Of a stretch of DNA of 64,000 nt, positions 4,581-48,048 are shown in pieces (the stretch's first letter is position 1; the number at the start of each line of letters is the position of its first letter). Below the pieces are notes generated by a model, which saw only the letters and a list, made by a program, of their open reading frames with translations, searched no databases and was not told the origin of the DNA. Both the position numbers and the translations under genes were made by a program. This DNA comes from Acidimicrobiales bacterium (GTDB lineage: Bacteria; Actinomycetota; Acidimicrobiia; Acidimicrobiales; VFJN01), in NCBI GenBank assembly GCA_035641315.1, contig DASQUK010000244.1, positions 45,303 through 109,302 of the forward strand, in the 5' to 3' direction.

Positions 4581-5336
4581 ATGGCTCATCGGCGAGCCGA
4601 AGGCGAGCTGATGAGCCTTTTGCGGGCACCCTCCTCTGGAGCGGCGCGGCTCCGGGTGCGGACCTGGCACGCCGATGACCGGCTCGCGCACATCACCCCT
4701 GCGGTCGACGGGTCCGGCCCGCTCACCGCCGAGGAGGTGCGCCGCTGCATCGCCGACCTGCGCGACGGCGGGTACAGGGGGGCGGTCACGGCCGCCATGG
4801 GGCGGGCCGACCAGCCGCCGTTCCTCGAGGCCGGGTTCGTGCCCGCCGAGCGCCTGCACCTGCTGGTGCACCCGCTCGGCCAGCTGCCAGAAGCCGTGCT
4901 GTCGGCACCGGTGCACATTCGCCGGGGACGGCGGCGCGACATGGAGGATCTGCTGGCCGTCGACACCGCCGCGTTCAGCGGTATGTGGCGCCTGGACCGG
5001 GTCGGGGTCGACGAGGCGCTGAACGCCACGCCCACGGTGCACCTGCGGGTCGCCCGCGACGCCGCCGGGACCGCCGGCTACGCCATCTGCGGGCGAGCTG
5101 CCGACCGCGGCTACGTCCAGCGGCTGGCCGTGCACCCCCGGGTGCAGGGCCATGGCATCGGGGGCACCCTGCTGCTCGACGGCCTGCGCTGGCTACGGCG
5201 CTGGGGCGCGCGGGACGCGTTGGTCAACACCCAAGAGGGCAACGACCGCTCCTTGCGGCTCTACCAGCGCACGGGGTTCGTGCTGCAGCCCGATGGGCTC
5301 AGGGTGCTCCGCCTCGATCTCGGCGCTTCCCCGTGA
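4581..5336 (+). CDS. GNAT family N-acetyltransferase
   Basis: C-terminal acetyl-CoA motif A: YVQRLAVHPRVQGHGIGGTLL ... NDRSLRLYQRTGF. Start uncertain (ATG 4581 or ATG 4611). Confidence 0.75.
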   Translation: MAHRRAEGELMSLLRAPSSGAARLRVRTWHADDRLAHITPAVDGSGPLTAEEVRRCIADLRDGGYRGAVTAAMGRADQPPFLEAGFVPAERLHLLVHPLGQLPEAVLSAPVHIRRGRRRDMEDLLAVDTAAFSGMWRLDRVGVDEALNATPTVHLRVARDAAGTAGYAICGRAADRGYVQRLAVHPRVQGHGIGGTLLLDGLRWLRRWGARDALVNTQEGNDRSLRLYQRTGFVLQPDGLRVLRLDLGASP

Positions 5337-5563
5337 GCCGGCTTCGCCCGTCCGCGCCCCTCCGCTCACGGGTCCTGTCGCCTCCGGTGCGGCGGCTCCG
5401 ACGCTGTGACACCCGCTCTCGGCGGCTCCGCCGCCGGGCCGCTCGGGCCCTGGCGCCGCCGGCGCCGACAGGCGCCGACAACGGCGCCGCATCCTCGGCG
5501 CCACCCGCTCGCTACCCGCCCTCCGCCGGAAGACGAAGATTGGCCTCGGCCTGCGGCCGAGTC
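5333..5563 (+). repeat. Operon-junction dispersed repeat, copy A (MIRU-like, 231 bp)
   Basis: Begins GTGAGCCGGCTTCGCCCGTCC, with the GTG overlapping the GNAT TGA. Ends in the hairpin ctcggcc-tgc-ggccgag followed by tc. The 5' ~60 nt and 3' ~70 nt align almost base for base with the reverse complements of 42022..42192 and 45792..45965. Copy A has roughly 55 extra central nt. Confidence 0.85.
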
Positions 5564-7606
5564 GCGATTCTCGTCGCGATCAGCATGGCCGCGGCACCGG
5601 CCGCACCGACGGCCGCCGCTCCCCGCCAGGCGGGGCCGACCATGGAGCTTGTCGAGCAGACGAGCTGGGTGCATGCCGGCGACGAGTTCCGGGTGAGCGT
5701 GCGGGTCGGCGGCGCGCCGGCGGGGGCCGGCCTGCAGATGGTGGTCCACGATCGTCTCGTGTCGCGATCAGATTTCCAGCAGACGCTCGACGGTGAGCTG
5801 GGCGACACGGAGCTGACGCTCGATCCGCGGCCATTGAGCGAGCTGGGCCCGGCAGCCGGTCCGTTCACCACCGGGTTCGTCGTCGGGGATCAAGGTCAGG
5901 GCCTCGGTGGCCGCGGCGTGTACCCGGTCGAGGTGCGCCTGGTCGACACGCAGGGCACGGAGCTGGCCAACCTCGTCACCTATCTCCCGTACCTCCACGA
6001 ACCGAACGAGGAACCCTCGTACACGCCGCTATCGGTCGCGGTGGTGCTCGATGTCAGCGGGCCGCCCGCCCTCCAGCCCGACGGCGACGTCCGGGTCGCG
6101 TCCAGGACCATCGACCGGGCCCGCGAGCGGGCAGATGTGTTGGCCGCCACGCCTGATGTGCCCCTCACGCTCGCCCCGCAACCCGAGACGCTCGACGGGC
6201 TCGCGGACAGCGGTGGTACGGGCGCGGCGACGGTGCAGGCCCTGGTCGATGCCAGCGGCGAGCGACCGGTGCTGGCCCGCCCCTACACGGACGTAGACCT
6301 GACGACGCTCCGCCACAGCGGGCTGGTGAGCGAGGCCGACGACCAGATCGGGGCCGGAGCCACAGCGGTGCGCAACCGGTTCCGGCGTGAGCCGTCGGCA
6401 GGCATCTGGCTGTCCGGACCTACGCTGGGGAACGACGCCGCAGAGCAGGCTGTGGACCTCGGCATCGACCGCGCCCTGCTGCCCTCCAGCGCCGTCGAGG
6501 ATGACGACTCGGGCTCACAGGCGGGCGCAGTGCCCGACGCACCCGTCGCCGTCACCAACGAGCTTGTCGCGATGGTCAGCGATCCGGAGCTGGCCGAACA
6601 CCTGACCGCGGAGGACGGCGTCATCGACGCCCAGCGGTTCCTCGCCGAGCTGGCGATCATGTGGTTCGAGCGGCCCTCCACGCCCCGAGCGGTCGCGGTC
6701 TACATCCCCGGCGACGACCCGATCGACCCCCAGACCGTCGCTCGCGCGCTCAACGGGCTGACGGATGGCCAAACGGTGCAAGCGGTGCCGCTCGATCAGG
6801 TCTTCGACGTGCCGCCCGATCCGGACGGGCCCACCACCGTCGATCTCAGCGCCCACGAGATCGACGACGACCTCGACGCCATCGCCGGCCCGCTGCGCGA
6901 GGCCCGCCGCGGCGTGGTTGGCGTCGCCGGCACCCTGGCCGCAGACGGTCGCTCCCTCGAGCGGTCGCTGCTGCTCGCCACCGGCACCGCCACGCCCGAC
7001 CACCAGCGCGCCGCCTTCGTCGAGCGTGTCACCGGCGAGCTGGACTCGTTGGAGGGTGCCGTCGTTCTGCCCGACGCGTTCCGCATCACCCTCACCTCCC
7101 GCACGAGCACCGTCCCCGTCAACATCATCAACAACCTCGACCGACCGCTCCGGGTGCGGATCGAGTTCGACAGCGCGCAGCTCGACTTCCTCGACGGCGA
7201 CTTCATCACCCAGGACCTCCCGCCGGGTGCCACGCGGCTGGACGTGCGTGTGCGCGCCCTGACCTCGGGCGCGTTCACCATGGGCATCACCGTGCTGACC
7301 CCGGACAGCTCCCTCGAGCTCGACCAGACCACGTTCGACATCCGCTCGACGGCTGTGACCGGGGTGGGCTTGGTGCTCTCCGTCGGCGCCGGCCTGTTCC
7401 TCGCCGTGTGGTGGGCCCGTCACTGGCGCAACTCCCGCCGCTCGCGTCACCTGATGCCGGCGGGCGAGCCGCCGACGGTGCCCGCAGGTGGCGTCGTGAC
7501 GGTGGGCGACGGGTCGGAGACGGCCGTCGGCCCCTCCCGCCAGGACGACGACACCGGCGACTACCGCCCCGCGCACATGGCGGGCAGTCGGCCCCGCCGG
7601 GACTGA
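5540..7606 (+). CDS. Large secreted protein with C-terminal TM anchor, DUF6049-like (occupies the Rv3909 position of the conserved synteny)
   Basis: ORF 4985..7606. The upstream 350 nt overlap the GNAT gene and the next ~230 nt are the repeat element. A signal-peptide-like stretch (ASACGRVAILVAISMAAAPAAPTAAA) begins at in-frame TTG 5540; ATG 5585 is the alternative. C-terminal helix GVGLVLSVGAGLFLAVWWA. Family assignment is from memory of synteny and architecture. Confidence 0.6.
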   Translation: MASACGRVAILVAISMAAAPAAPTAAAPRQAGPTMELVEQTSWVHAGDEFRVSVRVGGAPAGAGLQMVVHDRLVSRSDFQQTLDGELGDTELTLDPRPLSELGPAAGPFTTGFVVGDQGQGLGGRGVYPVEVRLVDTQGTELANLVTYLPYLHEPNEEPSYTPLSVAVVLDVSGPPALQPDGDVRVASRTIDRARERADVLAATPDVPLTLAPQPETLDGLADSGGTGAATVQALVDASGERPVLARPYTDVDLTTLRHSGLVSEADDQIGAGATAVRNRFRREPSAGIWLSGPTLGNDAAEQAVDLGIDRALLPSSAVEDDDSGSQAGAVPDAPVAVTNELVAMVSDPELAEHLTAEDGVIDAQRFLAELAIMWFERPSTPRAVAVYIPGDDPIDPQTVARALNGLTDGQTVQAVPLDQVFDVPPDPDGPTTVDLSAHEIDDDLDAIAGPLREARRGVVGVAGTLAADGRSLERSLLLATGTATPDHQRAAFVERVTGELDSLEGAVVLPDAFRITLTSRTSTVPVNIINNLDRPLRVRIEFDSAQLDFLDGDFITQDLPPGATRLDVRVRALTSGAFTMGITVLTPDSSLELDQTTFDIRSTAVTGVGLVLSVGAGLFLAVWWARHWRNSRRSRHLMPAGEPPTVPAGGVVTVGDGSETAVGPSRQDDDTGDYRPAHMAGSRPRRD

Positions 7607-40237: not shown

Positions 40238-40978
40238 TCAGCGGCCCATGCCGAGGCCGCCGTCGACCGGCACGACCGCGCCGGTGATGTACGACGCCGC
40301 GTCGGAGCACAGGAAGGCGACCACGGCGGCGACCTCGTCCGGCGTGCCGAACCGGCCGATGGCGGTGGCGTCGGCCAAGGCCTGGCGGCGGGTGTCGGGC
40401 AATGCTTCGGTCATGGTGGTGGTGATCGGGCCGGGCTCGACCACGTTGACGGTGATGCCCCGAGAGGCGACCTCGCGGGCCACCGAGCGCGACAAGCCCA
40501 CGAGGCCGGCCTTGGCAGCGGCGTAGTTGGCCTGGCCCGGCGATCCGGTGGCGGCGACGATCGACGACACGGTGACGATGCGACCGTAGCGGGCCCGGAT
40601 CATGGGCCGCAGCGCCCGGCGGATGGCGTGGAACGGGCCGCTGAGGTCGGTGTCGAGCGTGTGGCGCCAGTCGTCGTCGCCCAGCTGCACGGTGAGCTTG
40701 TCGCGGTTGGCCCCGGCGGCGTTGACCAGCAGCTCCACCGGGCCCCACGCGTCCTCGACGGCGGCGAAGGCGCCGTCGACCACGCCCGGGTCGGTGACGT
40801 CGACGTGCACCGCCAGCGCGCTGCCGCCCGCCTGCCCGATGGCCTCGACGACCTTGTCGGCGGCGCCGGCCGAGCCGCCGTAGCCGACGGCGACCCGGTG
40901 GCCGTCGGCGGCGAGGGCGTGGGCGCAGGCGGACCCGATGCTCCCGGACGCCCCGGTCACCAGCGCGATCCGTGTCAT
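40238..40978 (-). CDS. fabG: 3-oxoacyl-ACP reductase FabG
   Basis: MTRIALVTGASGSIG, NAAG, and YAAAKAG catalytic motifs. ATG 40978 overlaps the fabH stop (ATGA). The rest of ORF 40238..41686 is out-of-frame overlap with fabH. Confidence 0.9.
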   Translation of the reverse strand: MTRIALVTGASGSIGSACAHALAADGHRVAVGYGGSAGAADKVVEAIGQAGGSALAVHVDVTDPGVVDGAFAAVEDAWGPVELLVNAAGANRDKLTVQLGDDDWRHTLDTDLSGPFHAIRRALRPMIRARYGRIVTVSSIVAATGSPGQANYAAAKAGLVGLSRSVAREVASRGITVNVVEPGPITTTMTEALPDTRRQALADATAIGRFGTPDEVAAVVAFLCSDAASYITGAVVPVDGGLGMGR

Positions 40979-42192
40979 GCGGGCGGCCCCCAGCGCCACA
41001 GCGCGGTGCCGACGGTGAGCCCGGCGCCGAAGCCGCAGAGCAGCAGCAGGTCGCCGGGTGCCAGGCGACCGGCGTCGGCCTCCTCGGCCAGGGCCAGCGG
41101 GATCGAGGCGGCCGAGGTGTTGCCGAACCGGTCCACGTTGCTGAGGGTGCGCTCGGCGGGGACGCCGATGCGGGGCAGCACGGCGTCGACGATGCGGGCG
41201 TTGGCCTGGTGGGGGACGAACCACGTCACGTCGTCGGCGCCGCAGCCGGCCCGCGCCAGCGTGCGCTCGACCGAGGCGGTCACGGCCCGCACCGCCCGCC
41301 GGAACACCTCGCGGCCGTCCATCCGCAGGTAGTGCTCGCCGCTCGCCACGGTCTCGGTCGTGGCGGGCCGGGCACTGCCGCCGGCGGGCACGACCAGCAG
41401 GTCGATCCCACCGGGATCGCCGACGAGATCGCAGGCCAGGAGCCCTGGCGTGGCGGTGGCCGACGACGGCGCCGGCTGGGCATGGTCGCCGTTGGTGGGA
41501 GTGGGTCCGCCGGTGCCTGTGAGCACGAGCGCAGCGGCGGCGTCGCCGAACAGGACTGCCGTGGCGCGGTCGTCGGGGTCGGTGACGCTCGTCATCGTGT
41601 CGGCGCCCACCAGCACCGCGCTCCGGGCCATCCCCTGGCCGACCAGCGCCGCGGTGGTGGCGAGCCCGTAGACGAAGCCGGCGCAAGCGGCGTTGAGGTC
41701 GAACGCGCCGCCGGCGATCCCGAGCTCGGCGGCCACGATGGCGGCGGTCGCGGGGATCGGCCGCTCGGGTGTGCTGGTGGCGACGACCACCAGGTCGACG
41801 TCGCCCGGCGCGACGCGCGCCCGGTCGAGCGCCATGCGGGTGGCGGCGACCGCGAGCGGCCCGGTGGACTCGCCGGCGGCGGCCACCCGGCGCTCACGGA
41901 TGCCGGTCCGCTCGACGATCCACTGGTCGCTGGTGTCGAGGGTGCGGGCGAGGTCGTGGTTGGTGACGCGGCGCTCGGGCAGGGCGTGCGCCCATCCGGC
42001 GACGGCGACCCCGGGATTGACGACTCGGCCGGAGGCCGAGGCCGCTTCTTGCGTACCGGCGGAGGGCGGTAGCGAGGGGGTGGCGCTGAGGATGCGGGGC
42101 CGCTGCCGGTGTGTCACGCCGGCGGCGGTAGGCCCCGCACCGGAGGCGACGGGACCCGTGAGCGGAGGTGCGGGCGGGCGTAGCCGGCTCAT
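40975..42192 (-). CDS. fabH: Beta-ketoacyl-ACP synthase III FabH (N-terminus apparently supplied by repeat element)
   Basis: TSDQWIVERTGIRERR, the active-site Cys context (NAACAGF), and HQANARI. Homology to FabH starts at VNPGVAVAGW (about 42021). The only canonical in-frame starts are GTG 42117 and ATG 42192, both inside the repeat. Confidence 0.85.
   Translation of the reverse strand: MSRLRPPAPPLTGPVASGAGPTAAGVTHRQRPRILSATPSLPPSAGTQEAASASGRVVNPGVAVAGWAHALPERRVTNHDLARTLDTSDQWIVERTGIRERRVAAAGESTGPLAVAATRMALDRARVAPGDVDLVVVATSTPERPIPATAAIVAAELGIAGGAFDLNAACAGFVYGLATTAALVGQGMARSAVLVGADTMTSVTDPDDRATAVLFGDAAAALVLTGTGGPTPTNGDHAQPAPSSATATPGLLACDLVGDPGGIDLLVVPAGGSARPATTETVASGEHYLRMDGREVFRRAVRAVTASVERTLARAGCGADDVTWFVPHQANARIVDAVLPRIGVPAERTLSNVDRFGNTSAASIPLALAEEADAGRLAPGDLLLLCGFGAGLTVGTALWRWGPPA
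42022..42192 (-). repeat. Operon-junction dispersed repeat, copy B (171 bp)
   Basis: Its reverse complement begins ATGAGCCGGCTACGCCCGCCC, with the ATG sharing one nt with the upstream TGA. It ends ctcggcc-tcc-ggccgag-tc and aligns with copies A and C. Confidence 0.85.
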
Positions 42193-42497
42193 CAGAGGAT
42201 GCGGACCCAGGCCAGGGGCTGGTCGGCCCGAACCCGCTCGCCCGGCAACGCCAGCAGTCCCATGAGGAAGCCGGTGTGGGGGCTGGTCACCGGCACGGCA
42301 CCGTCGGTGACCTCGATCGTGCCCATCTGCTGGCCGGCGTAGACGATCTCGCCCTCGGCGGTCACGACATCCGGCGCCGCCGCCCGGAACACGCCGGCGG
42401 CGGGGGCCGGGATCAGCCGCTCGGGCACGTGCAGGTCCTCGGCAACGGGTTCGAGGTCGGCCTCGAGGGCGGTGAGCGGGTCATCGACGGCGGTCAT
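42192..42497 (-). CDS. Biotinyl/lipoyl-domain-like small protein lacking any lysine
   Basis: 101 aa. The pattern PAPAAGVF...GEIVYAGQQMGTIEV...VTSPHTGFLMGLLALPGERVRADQPLAWV follows the BCCP hybrid-barrel pattern, but the E-A-M-K-M position reads EVTDG. The protein contains no Lys at all. Confidence 0.55.
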   Translation of the reverse strand: MTAVDDPLTALEADLEPVAEDLHVPERLIPAPAAGVFRAAAPDVVTAEGEIVYAGQQMGTIEVTDGAVPVTSPHTGFLMGLLALPGERVRADQPLAWVRIL

Positions 42498-43426
42498 CGG
42501 GTGGCTCCGGTCAGGGTCGACTCCAACACACTTGACAGGTCGGTGGGGGTGGACACGTTGTGCACGGTCACGTCCGGGACCGTGCGCTTGGCGAGGCCGG
42601 CGAGCACCCGTCCCGGCCCGACCTCGATGAACGACGTCGCCCCCGACGCCGCCAGCGCGCGCTGCGACTCGCGCCAGCGGACGGGCTCGACCAGGTGGCG
42701 CGTGAGCTGGTCGGGCCAGCAGCCGGGGTCGGTGTGGCCGAGGGCGTCGGTGTTGACGACGACCGGGGCCGCCGGCTCGTGGAACGCCAGCTCATCGAGC
42801 AGCGGGCGCAGCCCCTGGGCGGCGTCGGCCAGCAGCGGCGTGTGGAAGGCGTGGCCCACGTCGAGCGGCATGACCCGGCGCACGCGGAGCTGTCGGGCCC
42901 GCTCTTCGGCGGCCGTCAACCCCTCCGGCGTGCCGGCGATCACCACCTGGCCCGGGGCGTTGTCGTTGGCGACCCACACGTCGTCGGCGCCCTGGCAGAC
43001 GCGGACGGCCACCTCGACCTCGGTCCCCACCAGGGCCGCCATGCGACCGGGCCGGGCGTCGGCGGACGCCTGTGACAGCTCGGCCCGGCGAGCGGCGAGC
43101 CGAAACCCGTCGCCCCGGTCGACGGCGCCGGCGGCCAGCAGGGCCGTGATCTGGCCCAACGAATGCCCGGCGAAGGCGACGGGCGGCTCGTCGACCTGGG
43201 CCCGCAGCGCCTCCCAGGCCACCAGCGAGCCCAGCAGCACCGCCATCTGGCTGGCGCCGGTGGTCGACAGCTCCTGGGCATCTGCGTCGAGCAGCAGGCT
43301 GGCGAGCGGGCGGTCGAGCACGGCCTCGGCCTCGGTGACCACGGCCCACGCCGGGTGATCGACCCAGGCACGGCCGGCGCCTGGCGCGGCGGCGCCTTGG
43401 CCGGGAAAGATCACGGCGTAGGGCAC
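42494..43426 (-). CDS. fabD: Malonyl-CoA:ACP transacylase FabD
   Basis: FPGQGA, the GHSLGQITAL active-site serine motif, and a HAFHTP-type segment. Confidence 0.9.
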   Translation of the reverse strand: MPYAVIFPGQGAAAPGAGRAWVDHPAWAVVTEAEAVLDRPLASLLLDADAQELSTTGASQMAVLLGSLVAWEALRAQVDEPPVAFAGHSLGQITALLAAGAVDRGDGFRLAARRAELSQASADARPGRMAALVGTEVEVAVRVCQGADDVWVANDNAPGQVVIAGTPEGLTAAEERARQLRVRRVMPLDVGHAFHTPLLADAAQGLRPLLDELAFHEPAAPVVVNTDALGHTDPGCWPDQLTRHLVEPVRWRESQRALAASGATSFIEVGPGRVLAGLAKRTVPDVTVHNVSTPTDLSSVLESTLTGATR

Positions 43427-45029: not shown

Positions 45030-45791
45030 CTAGCGGGGTCGGCGCGGCACGATCACCAGGTCGCCGCCGTCGTCGATCACCGACACGGTGGCACCGAACA
45101 CCCGGGCCACCAGCTCCGGGGTGAACACCTCGTGGGCCGTGCCGCGCGCCACCACCCGCCCCTTGTCGAGCATGACGAAGCCGTCGGCGTGCTGGGCGGC
45201 CAGGGTGAGGTCGTGCATCGCCGACACGACGGTCAGCCCCCGGCGATGGCGGAGGTCGTCCACCAGCGACAGCACCTCCTGCTGGTGGCCGATGTCCAGG
45301 GCGGTGGTCGGCTCGTCGAGCAGGAGCACGGGCGCCTCCTGGGCCAGGGCCCTCGCGATCACGGCGCGTTGGCGCTCGCCGCCCGACAGCGTCGCCACCT
45401 CGCGGTCGGCCAGGTCCGTGAGGTCGAGCAGGGCGAGCACCTCGGCGAGCACGACCAGGTCGTGGGTGCTCTCGCTGCCGAGGAAGGGGATGTGGGCGGT
45501 GCGCCCCAGCAGCACGTAGTCGCTGACCGAGGCGCCGCCGGGCATCGTGGGCTGCTGGGGAGCGACGGCCAGCATCCGCGCCCGCTGGCGCGGGCCCAGA
45601 CCCACCGTGCGTTGCTCGCCCAGCGTGATCGCGCCCCCGTGGGGCACGGTGCCAGCCAGAGCCCGCAGCAGCGTGGACTTGCCGGCACCGTTGGGTCCCA
45701 CGATCCCGAGCCACGATCCGGCGGCGACGTCGAGGTCGATAGGGTGCAGCACCGTCGCTCCGCCGAGCTCGACGGACACGCCAGAGAGCAC
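45030..45791 (-). CDS. ABC transporter ATP-binding protein (FecE/BtuD type)
   Basis: GPNGAGKSTLL, LSGGERQR and LLLDEPT motifs. The homologous N-terminus starts at GTG 45791 (VLSGVSVELGG), immediately after the repeat. The ORF stays open in frame back to ATG 45965. Confidence 0.9.
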   Translation of the reverse strand: MLSGVSVELGGATVLHPIDLDVAAGSWLGIVGPNGAGKSTLLRALAGTVPHGGAITLGEQRTVGLGPRQRARMLAVAPQQPTMPGGASVSDYVLLGRTAHIPFLGSESTHDLVVLAEVLALLDLTDLADREVATLSGGERQRAVIARALAQEAPVLLLDEPTTALDIGHQQEVLSLVDDLRHRRGLTVVSAMHDLTLAAQHADGFVMLDKGRVVARGTAHEVFTPELVARVFGATVSVIDDGGDLVIVPRRPR

Positions 45792-45965
45792 GACTCGGCC
45801 GGAGGCCGAGGCCGCTTCTTCGTTTCCGGCGGAGGGCGGGTAGCGAACGGGTGGCGCTGAGGATGCGGGGCCGCTTGAGGCGCTGTGCGCCGAAGGCGGT
45901 AGGCCCCGCACCGGAGGCGACAGGACCCGTGAGCGGCGGGGCGAGGACGGGCGAAGCCGGCTCAT
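45792..45965 (-). repeat. Operon-junction dispersed repeat, copy C (174 bp)
   Basis: Its reverse complement begins ATGAGCCGGCTTCGCCCGTCC, with the ATGA overlapping the permease stop. It ends ctcggcc-tcc-ggccgag-tc, directly abutting GTG 45791. Confidence 0.85.
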
Positions 45966-47068
45966 GTCCGCCTCCGGCCCAGAAGCACGAGGAAGAAGGG
46001 GGCGCCGACCAGCGCGGTGATGACGCCGATGGGCACCTCGGCGGGGCTGAGGGCCGTACGGGCCGCCAGGTCGGCGAGCACCATGAATGCCCCACCACCC
46101 AGCAGGGTGAGAGGCAGGATGACCCGGTAGCTGTGACCGGCGAGCAGCCGGATGGCGTGGGGCACGATGATTCCCACGAACCCGATGAGCCCGCTCACCG
46201 CCACGGCGGCGGCAGTCCCCAGCGAGGCGGCAACGACCACCACCAGGCGAGTGCGGTCGACGTCGAGCCCGAGCGTGGTGGCCTCCTCGTCCCCGACGGC
46301 CAGCACGTCGAGCGAGCGCCGGTGCAGCAGCACCCCCGCGGCGGCGAGCACCGTCCACGGCAGGATCAGCCGGACCTCGGCCCATCCGGACGTCGACAAC
46401 CCCCCGAGGATCCAGGCGTACACGTCGCGCAGGGTGTCGTCGGCGCGCTGCTGGAAATAGGTCTGCACCGCGGTGAACAGGTTCGCCATGGCGACGCCGG
46501 CCAGGATCAGCGAGGTGGTGGTGCCGGCGAGGCCCCGCCCCGCGGCCCGGCCCACGAGGTAGGTGAGACCCACGGCCACCAGGGCCCCGACGAACGCCGC
46601 CGCCGGCAACAGGTCGAACGGCCCCCAGCCTCCCTCGGCACCGAGCGAGAGCACGAGCGTGGCGCCCAGCCCCGCCCCCGCGGCGGCCCCCAACAGCCAG
46701 GGGTCGGCCAGCGGGTTGCGGAACACGCCCTGGTAGGCGCCCCCGGCCAGGCTGAGGGTGGCGCCCACCAGCAGGGCCAGCACCACACGCGGCAGGCGCA
46801 GCTCCCAGAGGATGGCCGACTGGCGGGCGTCGAGGCCCGAATCGATGCTGACCAGCGGCAGCCGGTCGAGCATCTCCAGCACGACCCGGCCTGCCGGCAT
46901 CCCCGCCGGGCCGATGGCCACGCCGGTGGCGAAGGCCACGGCCAGCAGGGCCAGGCACCCGAGCCATGTGAGGCGCACCCGGGCGGGCGCCCGGCGCCGG
47001 CCCGGCGGGGCGCCGGTGGACCGGACGCCCGGCGGGCGTGCGGCCCGGGGGACTTCGGTGGTGGCCAT
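45962..47068 (-). CDS. FecCD-family ABC transporter permease (BtuC-like)
   Basis: Multi-TM protein with ILWELRLPRVVLALLVGATLSLAGGAYQGVFRNPLADP, the FecCD signature. Start set at ATG 47068, 20 nt after the binding-protein stop. Confidence 0.9.
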   Translation of the reverse strand: MATTEVPRAARPPGVRSTGAPPGRRRAPARVRLTWLGCLALLAVAFATGVAIGPAGMPAGRVVLEMLDRLPLVSIDSGLDARQSAILWELRLPRVVLALLVGATLSLAGGAYQGVFRNPLADPWLLGAAAGAGLGATLVLSLGAEGGWGPFDLLPAAAFVGALVAVGLTYLVGRAAGRGLAGTTTSLILAGVAMANLFTAVQTYFQQRADDTLRDVYAWILGGLSTSGWAEVRLILPWTVLAAAGVLLHRRSLDVLAVGDEEATTLGLDVDRTRLVVVVAASLGTAAAVAVSGLIGFVGIIVPHAIRLLAGHSYRVILPLTLLGGGAFMVLADLAARTALSPAEVPIGVITALVGAPFFLVLLGRRRT

Positions 47069-47088
47069 GAGCCGGGGCGCCGTCGGAC

Positions 47089-48048
47089 TTAGCCGGCGTC
47101 CGTGACGGCCTTGACGACGGTGCGCAGGAACTCGACGATGCGCGGCCCCCACCGCGACGTGATGTCGGGGTCGAGCTCGACGATGTCGCCGTTGCGGACG
47201 GCGGTGATCTGATCCCACCCGGGGCGGGCGGTGACGTCGGTGGCCTCGATGCCGGCGGCCTCGTCGGCGAGGAAGATCAGGTCGGGGTCGGCGTCGATCA
47301 GCAGCTCGGCCGACACCTGCGGGTAACCGCTGCCGTCGTCGGCAGCGTCAGCCACGTTCTCCAGCCCCGCCAGGCCGTAGATCTGGCCGATGAACGTCTG
47401 CGACGTGGCGGTGTGCAGCTGGTCGTCGAGCTCGTGGTAGTAGGTCAGCGGCTCGTCGCGCTCCGGCACCTGGTCCACCAGGTCCTCGATGTCGGCCTGC
47501 ATCTCGTCGACCAGCTCGCCGGCTTCGTCGGTGTGGCCGGTGGCGGTGCCCAGGTCGGTGATCTGGTCGTAGGCCTCGTCGACCGTCGTTCCCGCTGGCA
47601 GCTCGAGCACCGGGATCTCCAGCCGCTCGAGCCCGGCGACAACGTCGTTGGCGTCGAACGACAGCACCACGAGGTCGGGGTCGTAGGTAGTGACCGCCTC
47701 GACGTTGGGCTCGAAGCCCGACAGGTCGGTCATGGGCGTGCCCTCGGGGTAGTTGGAGAAGTCGTCGACGGCGACGACCTGCTCGCCGGCGCCGATGGCG
47801 TAGATCGTCTCGGTGGCCGTGGGCGACAGCGACACGATGCGCTCGGGCTGGGCGTCGATCGTGACCGTGCCGTTGGCCGCCTCCACCTCGGCCGGGAAGG
47901 CATCCTCGGCCGCCTCGGCGAAGGTCTCGGCGTCGGCGTCGGCCCCGGACTGGGAGATCGATCCGTCGTCGTCCCCGCAGGCGGCGGCGAGTGCGAGCGT
48001 GGCGGCGACGGCCAACGAGAGGGCAGAAGTGCTGGCGATGGGTTTCAC
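47089..48048 (-). CDS. Periplasmic-binding-protein-type (BtuF/FepB-like) substrate-binding lipoprotein
   Basis: Lipobox LALAAACGDD. RIVSLSPTATETIYAIGAGEQVVAVDD...YDPDLVVLS is typical of the PBP type-2 (PF01497-like) family. GTG start preceded by AGGAGG. Confidence 0.85.
   Translation of the reverse strand: MKPIASTSALSLAVAATLALAAACGDDDGSISQSGADADAETFAEAAEDAFPAEVEAANGTVTIDAQPERIVSLSPTATETIYAIGAGEQVVAVDDFSNYPEGTPMTDLSGFEPNVEAVTTYDPDLVVLSFDANDVVAGLERLEIPVLELPAGTTVDEAYDQITDLGTATGHTDEAGELVDEMQADIEDLVDQVPERDEPLTYYHELDDQLHTATSQTFIGQIYGLAGLENVADAADDGSGYPQVSAELLIDADPDLIFLADEAAGIEATDVTARPGWDQITAVRNGDIVELDPDITSRWGPRIVEFLRTVVKAVTDAG

Follow-up and report, generated by a model that had tools for sequence, protein, structure and literature searches.

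The DNA analyzed here is a 64,000-nt stretch of contig DASQUK010000244.1 from an Acidimicrobiales bacterium (assembly GCA_035641315.1, positions 45,303 to 109,302 of the forward strand), referred to below as the window. It carries three copies, A, B and C, of a G+C-rich repeat element located at operon junctions. Each copy begins at the stop codon of the upstream gene, points in the direction of transcription and stays open into the downstream gene. The element is probably a mobile one that resembles the interspersed repetitive units of mycobacteria (MIRUs) and is tolerated at these junctions by relaying translational coupling. The copies and their flanking genes, the latter assigned with Pfam, are as follows (window coordinates).

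5333..5564 (+): copy A, 232 nt including the preceding G; GTG 5333 overlaps the stop codon TGA 5334-5336 of the GNAT gene; open into the DUF6049 gene
5334..5392 (+): 5' module of copy A, TGAGCCGGCT...CCGGTGCGG
5394..5453 (+): nested 57-60 nt module of copy A at the apex of the core hairpin, a separate small repeat
5487..5529 (+): 3' module of copy A, CCGCATCCTC...CCGCCGG
5545..5561 (+): 3' hairpin of copy A, CTCGGCC-TGC-GGCCGAG
42021..42192 (-): copy B; the A of ATG 42192 is also the last base of the upstream stop codon TGA 42194-42192; open into fabH
45791..45965 (-): copy C; ATG 45965 overlaps the FecCD stop codon TGA 45964-45962; open into the ABC ATPase gene
4581..5336 (+): GNAT acetyltransferase, upstream of copy A
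5565..7606 (+): body of the DUF6049 gene, downstream of copy A
42192..42497 (-): 101-aa biotin/lipoyl-like protein, upstream of copy B
40975..42020 (-): fabH core, 347 codons and stop, downstream of copy B
45962..47218 (-): FecCD permease, upstream of copy C, start codon uncertain
45030..45790 (-): ABC ATPase core of the iron/cobalamin type, downstream of copy C

A sequence-only reading of the window had described three copies with common 5' and 3' modules and an end hairpin, roughly 55 extra nucleotides in copy A, GTGA, TGATG and ATGA overlaps with the upstream stop codons, and DUF6049, fabH and an ABC ATPase as downstream genes. This description holds. The copies are recovered at 5334-5564 (+), 42191-42021 (-) and 45964-45791 (-), with sharp boundaries formed by TGAGCCGGCT at the 5' end and GGCCTCGGCCTNCGGCCGAGTCG at the 3' end, the tail being GGCCGAGTCG. 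Three matches free of mismatches are found in the window both for the 31-nt 5' core and for the 23-nt 3' hairpin, where 0.00 and 0.01 are expected by chance, and a sensitive search of the window with nhmmer brings up no further copy. The overlaps are correct by the open reading frame (ORF) tables, in which the frames from GTG 5333, ATG 42192 and ATG 45965 run stop-free into the downstream genes, and Pfam agrees on the identity of those genes. The extra sequence of copy A is refined to 57 nt (5394-5453), a separate repeat nested in the element. The 2-nt deletion in the 5' module of copy B and the compensating 1-nt deletion near its 3' module are also real, the segments measuring 49/48/55 against 51/48/56 in copy C. 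An in-frame GTG (45791-45789) lies immediately 3' of copy C. An exact look-up of the GNAT protein returns no record. The same reading had named further copies in relatives, element-free junctions, folding and copy-number polymorphism between strains as sources of evidence, and these are used below.

Copies outside the window were retrieved by scanning one internal 22-mer over the GTDB species representatives, which gives 39 loci. Thirty-six of them are metagenome-assembled genomes (MAGs) of Acidimicrobiia/Acidimicrobiales or MAGs labelled just Actinomycetota or uncultured bacterium; the other three (Verrucomicrobiia, Nannocystales and Amycolatopsis) match in the core only and were discarded as chance matches. 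With nhmmer, 27 further full-length copies are found, which together with those of the window make 30 copies from about 12 species-level MAGs; all counts out of 30 refer to this set. The element measures about 172-178 nt, a nested module raising this to 220-230 nt, and every locus has one copy per junction. BLAST similarity of the retrieved loci to the window is limited to the element and stops at its ends, so the flanks are unrelated loci. Because retrieval used an internal word alone, the genomic context of the copies is an unbiased read-out. The family is known so far from MAGs of Acidimicrobiia (mainly Acidimicrobiales) and from soil and other environmental metagenomes, and is a dispersed, non-autonomous repeat that is probably mobile. 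A scan of viral contigs with the 22-mer gives 0 matches, so nothing points to carriage by phages. The core hairpin (ACGGGTCCTGTCGCCTCCGGTGCGGGGCC...GGCCCCGCATCCTCAGCGCCACCCGC) is also present with very different flanks at L038:3346-3455, L013:3374-3498 and L016:226-302, where it has neither the TGAGCCGGCT head nor the GGCCGAGTCG tail and adjoins terminator-like hairpins. These loci may represent a second, related family in another context.

The position of the element follows a rule. In 26/30 copies it opens with the in-frame stop codon (TGA, but TAA in L012) of a co-oriented upstream ORF, which spans 50-999 codons and has a third-position G+C content of 0.87-0.97. Copy B and L036, in which the element lies right next to the upstream stop or overlaps it, bring the total to 28/30; the remaining two are one copy at a locus edge and one ambiguous case. 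TGA is preceded by A in 18 of the 30 copies, by G in 9, by T in 2 and by C in 1, and therefore a start codon nearly always overlaps the upstream stop. The downstream gene is co-oriented in 24 copies, while six, from four independent loci, face a convergent gene and thus stand at operon ends. None of the 30 copies was found within a gene or in reverse orientation.

Sixteen of the 30 copies have what we call the canonical form. The frame opened by the overlapped start codon, the relay frame, comprises 61-63 codons (46, 52 or 81 in length variants) and ends 11-13 nt past the GAGTCG of ...GGCCGAGTCG, on a TGA within ATGA (GTGA in two copies). This terminal ATGA or GTGA is the start of the downstream gene, with GAGG(T) and a pyrimidine-rich spacer 5' of it, and the downstream ATG lies 5-7 nt past the element-borne GAGG. 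NTGA is found at both ends and is identical in 13/16. The downstream genes of canonical copies are common members of operons and encode NuoH, a NuoI-like ferredoxin, FtsW/RodA, MurJ, GH3, ABC-2 permeases, ABC ATPases and NAPRTase, and the Pfam domains of these proteins start at or very near the profile start, which fits the ATG as the true start. A divergent copy (L006) between rplF and rplR has GTGA at one end and AGGAGG...ATGA at the other. The host operons are functionally unrelated. Four metagenome loci (L135-L138), reached independently via predicted mini-proteins, have 4-nt overlaps at both ends, as judged from gene-caller coordinates.

Metagenome loci, two cases: ECF sigma / 111 aa / anti-sigma
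Metagenome locus: epimerase / 60 aa / epimerase
Metagenome locus: OppC / 62 aa / OppD

In-frame fusion to the downstream protein is seen in window copies A, B and C and in L002, L009, L033 and L050. The element had been described from the window as MIRU-like but fused and devoid of a stop of its own; the likeness and the fusion in the window stand, whereas most copies outside it end in their own stop, at an ATGA overlap, and so are nearer to MIRUs than that description supposed.

The relay frame keeps its phase but not its peptide. Measured from NTG to the hairpin, 26/30 copies have a length of 1 mod 3; they fall into seven in-phase lengths between 124 and 229 nt, typically 172-175 nt. Indels in the variable centre are balanced by indels between the 3' module and the hairpin, and the compensation classes mod 3 are (0,0,2) with n=10, (0,1,1) with n=10, (0,2,0) with n=3 and (1,0,1) with n=2. 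Depending on the copy, the 3' module CCGCATCCTCAGCGCCACCCGCTCGCTACCCGCCCTCCGCCGG yields GPASSAPPARYPPSAG, RPRILSATRSLPALRR or APHPQRHPLATPP, so that all three frames are used, and copy B, L050 and L002 have a frame shift in the 5' module. Over the first ~26 residues most copies are alike, and every copy rejoins ...ASA(F/C/Y/S)GRVEV before the stop, the variable base of the hairpin loop being the second position of the codon for F, C, S or Y. The four phase exceptions fit the relay model: L019 and L004 are without a co-oriented downstream gene, L039 is corrected 3' of the hairpin, and L029 is broken yet retains GAGG and ATG. After shared descent is taken into account we estimate about 9-10 independent in-phase events, for which chance would be about 1 in 20,000 to 60,000.

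Phase conservation, not openness, is the informative signal. The sequence is 78% G+C and the other two sense frames are nearly stop-free as well, so the stop-free passage into the downstream gene is, by itself, weak evidence, true as it is of all three window copies. Stop triplets on the sense strand are depleted (17 observed against 48 +/- 5 expected), a pseudo-replicated count that is supportive only, because the copies share ancestry. Selection acting on nucleotide sequence or structure together with openness and phase, and not on the peptide, is strongly supported. Nucleotide-level conservation with a frame kept open was also the proposal of the sequence-only reading, and it is borne out by the three-frame reading of the 3' module and the compensated indels.

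Orthologous junctions that lack the element carry a native NTGA stop/start overlap in relatives 79-90% identical to the window, and the upstream C-termini are unchanged there. Site C is empty in the fully syntenic L130 (ATPase 90% identical), where the junction reads ...CGGAGGCAGAC GTGA GCACGACC... and the FecCD stop overlaps the GTG of the ATPase. The filled site in the window is ...CGGAGGCGGAC ATGA GCCGGCT...[element]...GAGTC GTG CTC TCT GGCGTGTCC. The two sites were compared by eye; the MAFFT alignment misplaced the 5' flank. In copy C the upstream protein is unaltered and the overlapped start codon and frame are kept, while the native tail after the start (STTATAVDGTVRMR) is replaced by 57 element-encoded residues (SRLRPSS...ASASGRV) and then VLS. 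Site A is empty in L134 (DUF6049 79% identical), with ...CC ATGA GTCGCGCC..., encoding MSRAGGRAALLVAV. In L133 (90% identical) site A has just 43 in-phase nt of copy A, including the first 8 nt of the element and, with the TGC loop unchanged, 14 nt of the 3' hairpin; an internal deletion seems to have left this remnant. The C-terminus of GNAT has the same length as in element-free relatives. For site B, a contig with an 84% identical ATPase (P0025) has a 4-nt overlap between the 101-aa gene and fabH, which would be the empty site; in relatives further removed, the fabH junction is either a GTGA overlap or a spacer of 2 nt. Copy B is also present in L050 (FabH 81% identical) with the same 2-nt deletion, and the two copies are therefore orthologous. 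Polymorphism between strains is not seen for copy B, which is present in 10/10 near-identical soil contigs examined.

The window copies apparently represent a derived in-frame fusion, a minority state in the family. They have neither the GAGG...ATGA tail nor the 3' NTGA repeat, and the native N-terminal tail of the downstream gene is replaced by the element frame. In L050 the own ATG of FabH survives directly 3' of the element and in frame. In the window this ATG is lost, which leaves ATG 42192 and GTG 42117, both element-internal, as the sole in-frame starts ahead of the core. FabH must therefore initiate inside the element; the predicted peptide over the junction is ...ASASGRVVNPGVAVAGW. DUF6049 very probably initiates inside the element as well. 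All DUF6049 homologues have a signal peptide; in the window its hydrophobic core (VAILVAISMAAAP) starts at the first codon after the element, and the starts that spare the signal peptide (GTG 5333, GTG 5387 and TTG 5540) are all element-internal.

Two smaller observations concern individual junctions. At L007:5600-5662 (-) the element is followed by a (TTC)n run, giving poly-Leu, and then by a lipobox (VLLLLLLLGLLAGC), so that the element peptide appears to form the n-region of a predicted lipoprotein signal peptide. The 10-mer CCGCATCCTC, which opens the 3' module of the element, also makes up the last codons of the 101-aa gene directly 5' of copy B (42195-42204, -). The L050 ortholog of this gene has another ending (..GTCGTGGGA TGA), and the 10-mer before copy B may be due to chance or may be the trace of a local rearrangement.

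Orthologous copies from different species are 87-97% identical, compared with 60-84% at third codon positions of the adjoining genes, so that either constraint acts on the DNA or RNA sequence or the copies are homogenised. Both the 3' hairpin and a long core hairpin (CGGGU...GGUGCGGGGCC / GGCCCCGCAUCC...ACCCG) are conserved. Over the two, 94% of cells are paired; double changes affect nine pairs, where shuffles give 3.4 +/- 1.0, and the sense strand has invariant G.U pairs. Terminal inverted repeats are not found: the best local alignment of the 5' 40 nt with the reverse complement of the 3' 45 nt scores 6, and shuffles score 7.2 +/- 1.5. A classical MITE, a miniature transposable element with inverted repeats, is rejected for this reason. 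An integron attC-type repeat was likewise dropped, as the copies are dispersed singly in housekeeping operons.

In the mechanism that we propose, the element would occupy the 4-nt NTGA stop/start overlap of two co-transcribed genes and leave the upstream gene intact, and the overlapped start codon would open the relay frame across the element. Ribosomes ending on the upstream TGA may re-initiate at the overlapping ATG or GTG, translate through the element and melt its G+C-rich hairpins. In the canonical form they would stop on the TGA that overlaps the downstream ATG, 5-7 nt past the GAGG provided by the element. Coupling would thereby survive the insertion, which would explain the lasting presence of copies in core operons such as those for nuo, rpl, ftsW/murJ, ABC transporters and sigma/anti-sigma. 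The window copies would be a later state, in which the GAGG and ATGA tail were lost and the relay frame turned into an N-terminal extension.

Several points weigh against this interpretation. The copies are related by descent and counts such as 26/30 overstate the number of independent events; the conservation of orthologs could come from gene conversion among copies and not from function. Relay translation is argued from evolution only, and a canonical copy has its own GAGG, so that the downstream gene could also initiate independently. Folding does not help to decide. The minimum free energies of -79 to -123 kcal/mol correspond to z-scores of just -1.3 to -2.4, and the antisense strand folds equally well; as a result structure in RNA and in DNA is indistinguishable, and we hold the folding test not decisive and do not count it as evidence for a role at the RNA level. 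The exact 22-mer samples well-conserved copies only, and degraded or out-of-context copies may escape it. The insertions in the window are not simple, since 10-14 native N-terminal codons are gone and an extra deletion step is needed. No transposase is seen beside the copies, although no systematic search for one was made. Terminal inverted repeats are not found either, and the NTGA repeat is confounded with function, so mobility is argued from presence and absence at the junctions of relatives.

The conserved hairpins could also belong to a cis-acting RNA of the host, such as an intercistronic processing or stability element, an attenuator or a protein-binding site that sets the cistron ratio, with the open frame as a side condition. 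Ortholog conservation above that of synonymous sites, some compensatory changes, the invariant G.U pairs on the sense strand and the constant co-orientation with transcription are in its favour. We nevertheless regard it as unlikely. The host operons are functionally unrelated, the element is absent or cut to 43 nt in 79-90% identical relatives with the junction otherwise unchanged, and the folding z-scores are weak and not strand-specific. An Rfam search of the whole window yields two tRNAs only, the element having no match at the gathering score, and a role in RNA alone leaves the compensated frameshifts and exact ATGA overlaps unexplained. It is quite improbable that the copies are remnants of an ordinary MITE or insertion sequence in operon spacers, their open frame being a by-product of extreme G+C content with no role in translation. 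Such remnants would be dispersed, non-coding-like repeats as observed, with nested repeats in a variable centre, and the near absence of stops in the other two sense frames agrees with this. Against it stand terminal inverted repeats no better than shuffle expectation, nucleotide-exact placement on the upstream stop (28/30), a phase that survives many indels and is lost mainly where there is no co-oriented downstream gene, and a FabH in the window that has no start codon outside the element.

That the element is a true gene for a small protein, or a conserved N-terminal domain of which the genome has several copies, can almost be dismissed. Gene callers do annotate a 60-111 aa hypothetical protein or an N-terminal extension, and the similarity of the first ~26 residues in most copies points the same way. 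However, one nucleotide module is translated in three frames across copies, there is a frame shift in the 5' module of copy B, L050 and L002, and the variable loop base falls on the second codon position (F/C/S/Y). The peptide is of low complexity and rich in Pro, Arg and Ser, and Pfam searches with the element peptides find no family at E <= 1; among 5.8 billion proteins it corresponds to only 18 unnamed 'hypothetical protein' clusters. The relay interpretation can also be carried further, to an active mobile element that targets the NTGA overlap without inverted repeats or an enzyme of its own, for which in-phase translatability is the only coding constraint. Such an element might have been domesticated repeatedly, as start codons, signal-peptide n-regions and N-terminal leaders (e.g. 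of FabH), and its hairpins could tune operon stoichiometry. We offer this extension as speculative.

Among known systems MIRUs are the closest. According to the accounts in PMC3184786 and PMC12548453, MIRUs (Supply et al. 1997) are 40-100 bp units, often in tandem arrays of variable copy number, which are intercistronic in operons, co-oriented and carry a small ORF overlapping both flanking genes with -4 nt spacing. A tetranucleotide is found on both sides of filled sites, the unit is absent at the same junction in relatives, and MIRUs are thought to be tolerated through preserved translational coupling. The element shares the location at operon junctions and the co-orientation; its canonical form also has the doubly overlapping ORF and a tetranucleotide at each end, and relatives have empty or near-empty sites for copies A and C. 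By analogy it may work like a MIRU, the likeness being one of organization. Double overlap holds for 16/30 copies, L006 and L135-L138, the window copies having the 5' overlap only; the flanking NTGA pre-exists at empty sites A and C and is inseparable from stop/start function. Unlike MIRUs, the element is found in Acidimicrobiia and not in Mycobacterium, measures ~175 nt instead of 40-100 nt, is single-copy per junction with no tandem arrays of variable repeat number, has a long conserved hairpin with nested repeats in a variable apex, carries its own GAGG and often reads on in frame into the downstream gene as a fusion, which is the state of the three window copies.

Rickettsia palindromic elements (RPEs; Ogata et al. 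2000, cited in PMC3184786) are palindromes of ~100-150 nt that persist in coding sequence thanks to an open frame, insert at internal gene positions and add a peptide segment to housekeeping proteins. The window copies, in frame with FabH, DUF6049 and the ABC ATPase, resemble them in function only. The element is always anchored at a stop/start overlap and so gives N-terminal extensions only, and its canonical form is a separate mini-ORF and not a fusion. Repetitive extragenic palindromic (REP) sequences, bacterial interspersed mosaic elements (BIMEs) and ERIC-type palindromes of enterobacteria are G+C-rich hairpin repeats in transcribed operon spacers (PMC3184786), a description that fits the element too; unlike it they are untranslated, occur in either orientation, are not anchored to stop or start codons and have no phase constraint, and REPs are 21-65 nt long. 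Short coupling ORFs, or 'ribosome delivery' minigenes of the upstream-ORF type, pass a terminating ribosome to the next start via an overlapping stop/start (PMC12548453). Ribosome hand-over is likewise the only apparent role of the short ORF of the element, which differs in being borne by a repeat in many operons and in overlapping genes on both sides.

The family is not categorically new and is of interest for the study of bacterial repeats and translational coupling. To our knowledge, repeats that settle in operon junctions and relay coupling across them have so far been a peculiarity of mycobacteria. That a further family, of different structure, exists in a distant class of actinobacteria suggests that the strategy is one generally open to selfish DNA in gene-dense genomes of high G+C content, where 4-nt overlaps are common. 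As comparative evidence that termination-reinitiation coupling is under selection, the combination of one module in three reading frames with compensated indels is unusually clean, and the question of coupling is testable by simple reporter constructs. The element also causes annotation errors. FabH is called with 405, 380 or (core) 347 residues; the public call for DUF6049 (P0139; window 5585-7606) uses an internal ATG and gives 654 aa (MELVEQ...) with the signal peptide removed; and spurious 'hypothetical proteins' of 60-111 aa arise. Repeats of this kind can rewrite protein N-termini, even that of an essential enzyme.

The fatty-acid synthesis cluster around copy B (40975-43426, -) is unusual in having the 101-aa biotin/lipoyl-like ORF between fabD and fabH. 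This ORF is kept in relatives L050, L052 and L053 and has a 4-nt overlap with fabD.

The 57-nt extra sequence of copy A is a G+C-rich small repeat (GGCTCCGACGCTGTGACACCCGCTCTCGGCGGCTCCGCCGCCGGGCCGCTCGGGCC) that is also found elsewhere, at L036:3602-3659, L002:2133-2189 and L009:6822-6878, and as partial 42-nt copies at L133:3599-3640, L027:3731-3772 and L015:3398-3439. It lies at the hairpin apex of the element in three copies and 3' of the hairpin in one, while the 42-nt pieces occupy other intergenic sites in either orientation. Different hosts read it in different frames, as RLRRCDTRSRRL... or as GSDAVSPALGG.... One to three more nested modules, among them ...LACLRPANEQSPLRG... and ...VSLTRSHFVLPRV..., one of them inside the 3' hairpin, are seen in the mini-ORFs P0007, P0008, P0010, P0011, P0013 and P0014 and in L135:1201-1536. 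Other small repeats seem to land in the element by preference, and the nested modules lengthen the mini-ORFs to 75-111 codons with the frame still open.

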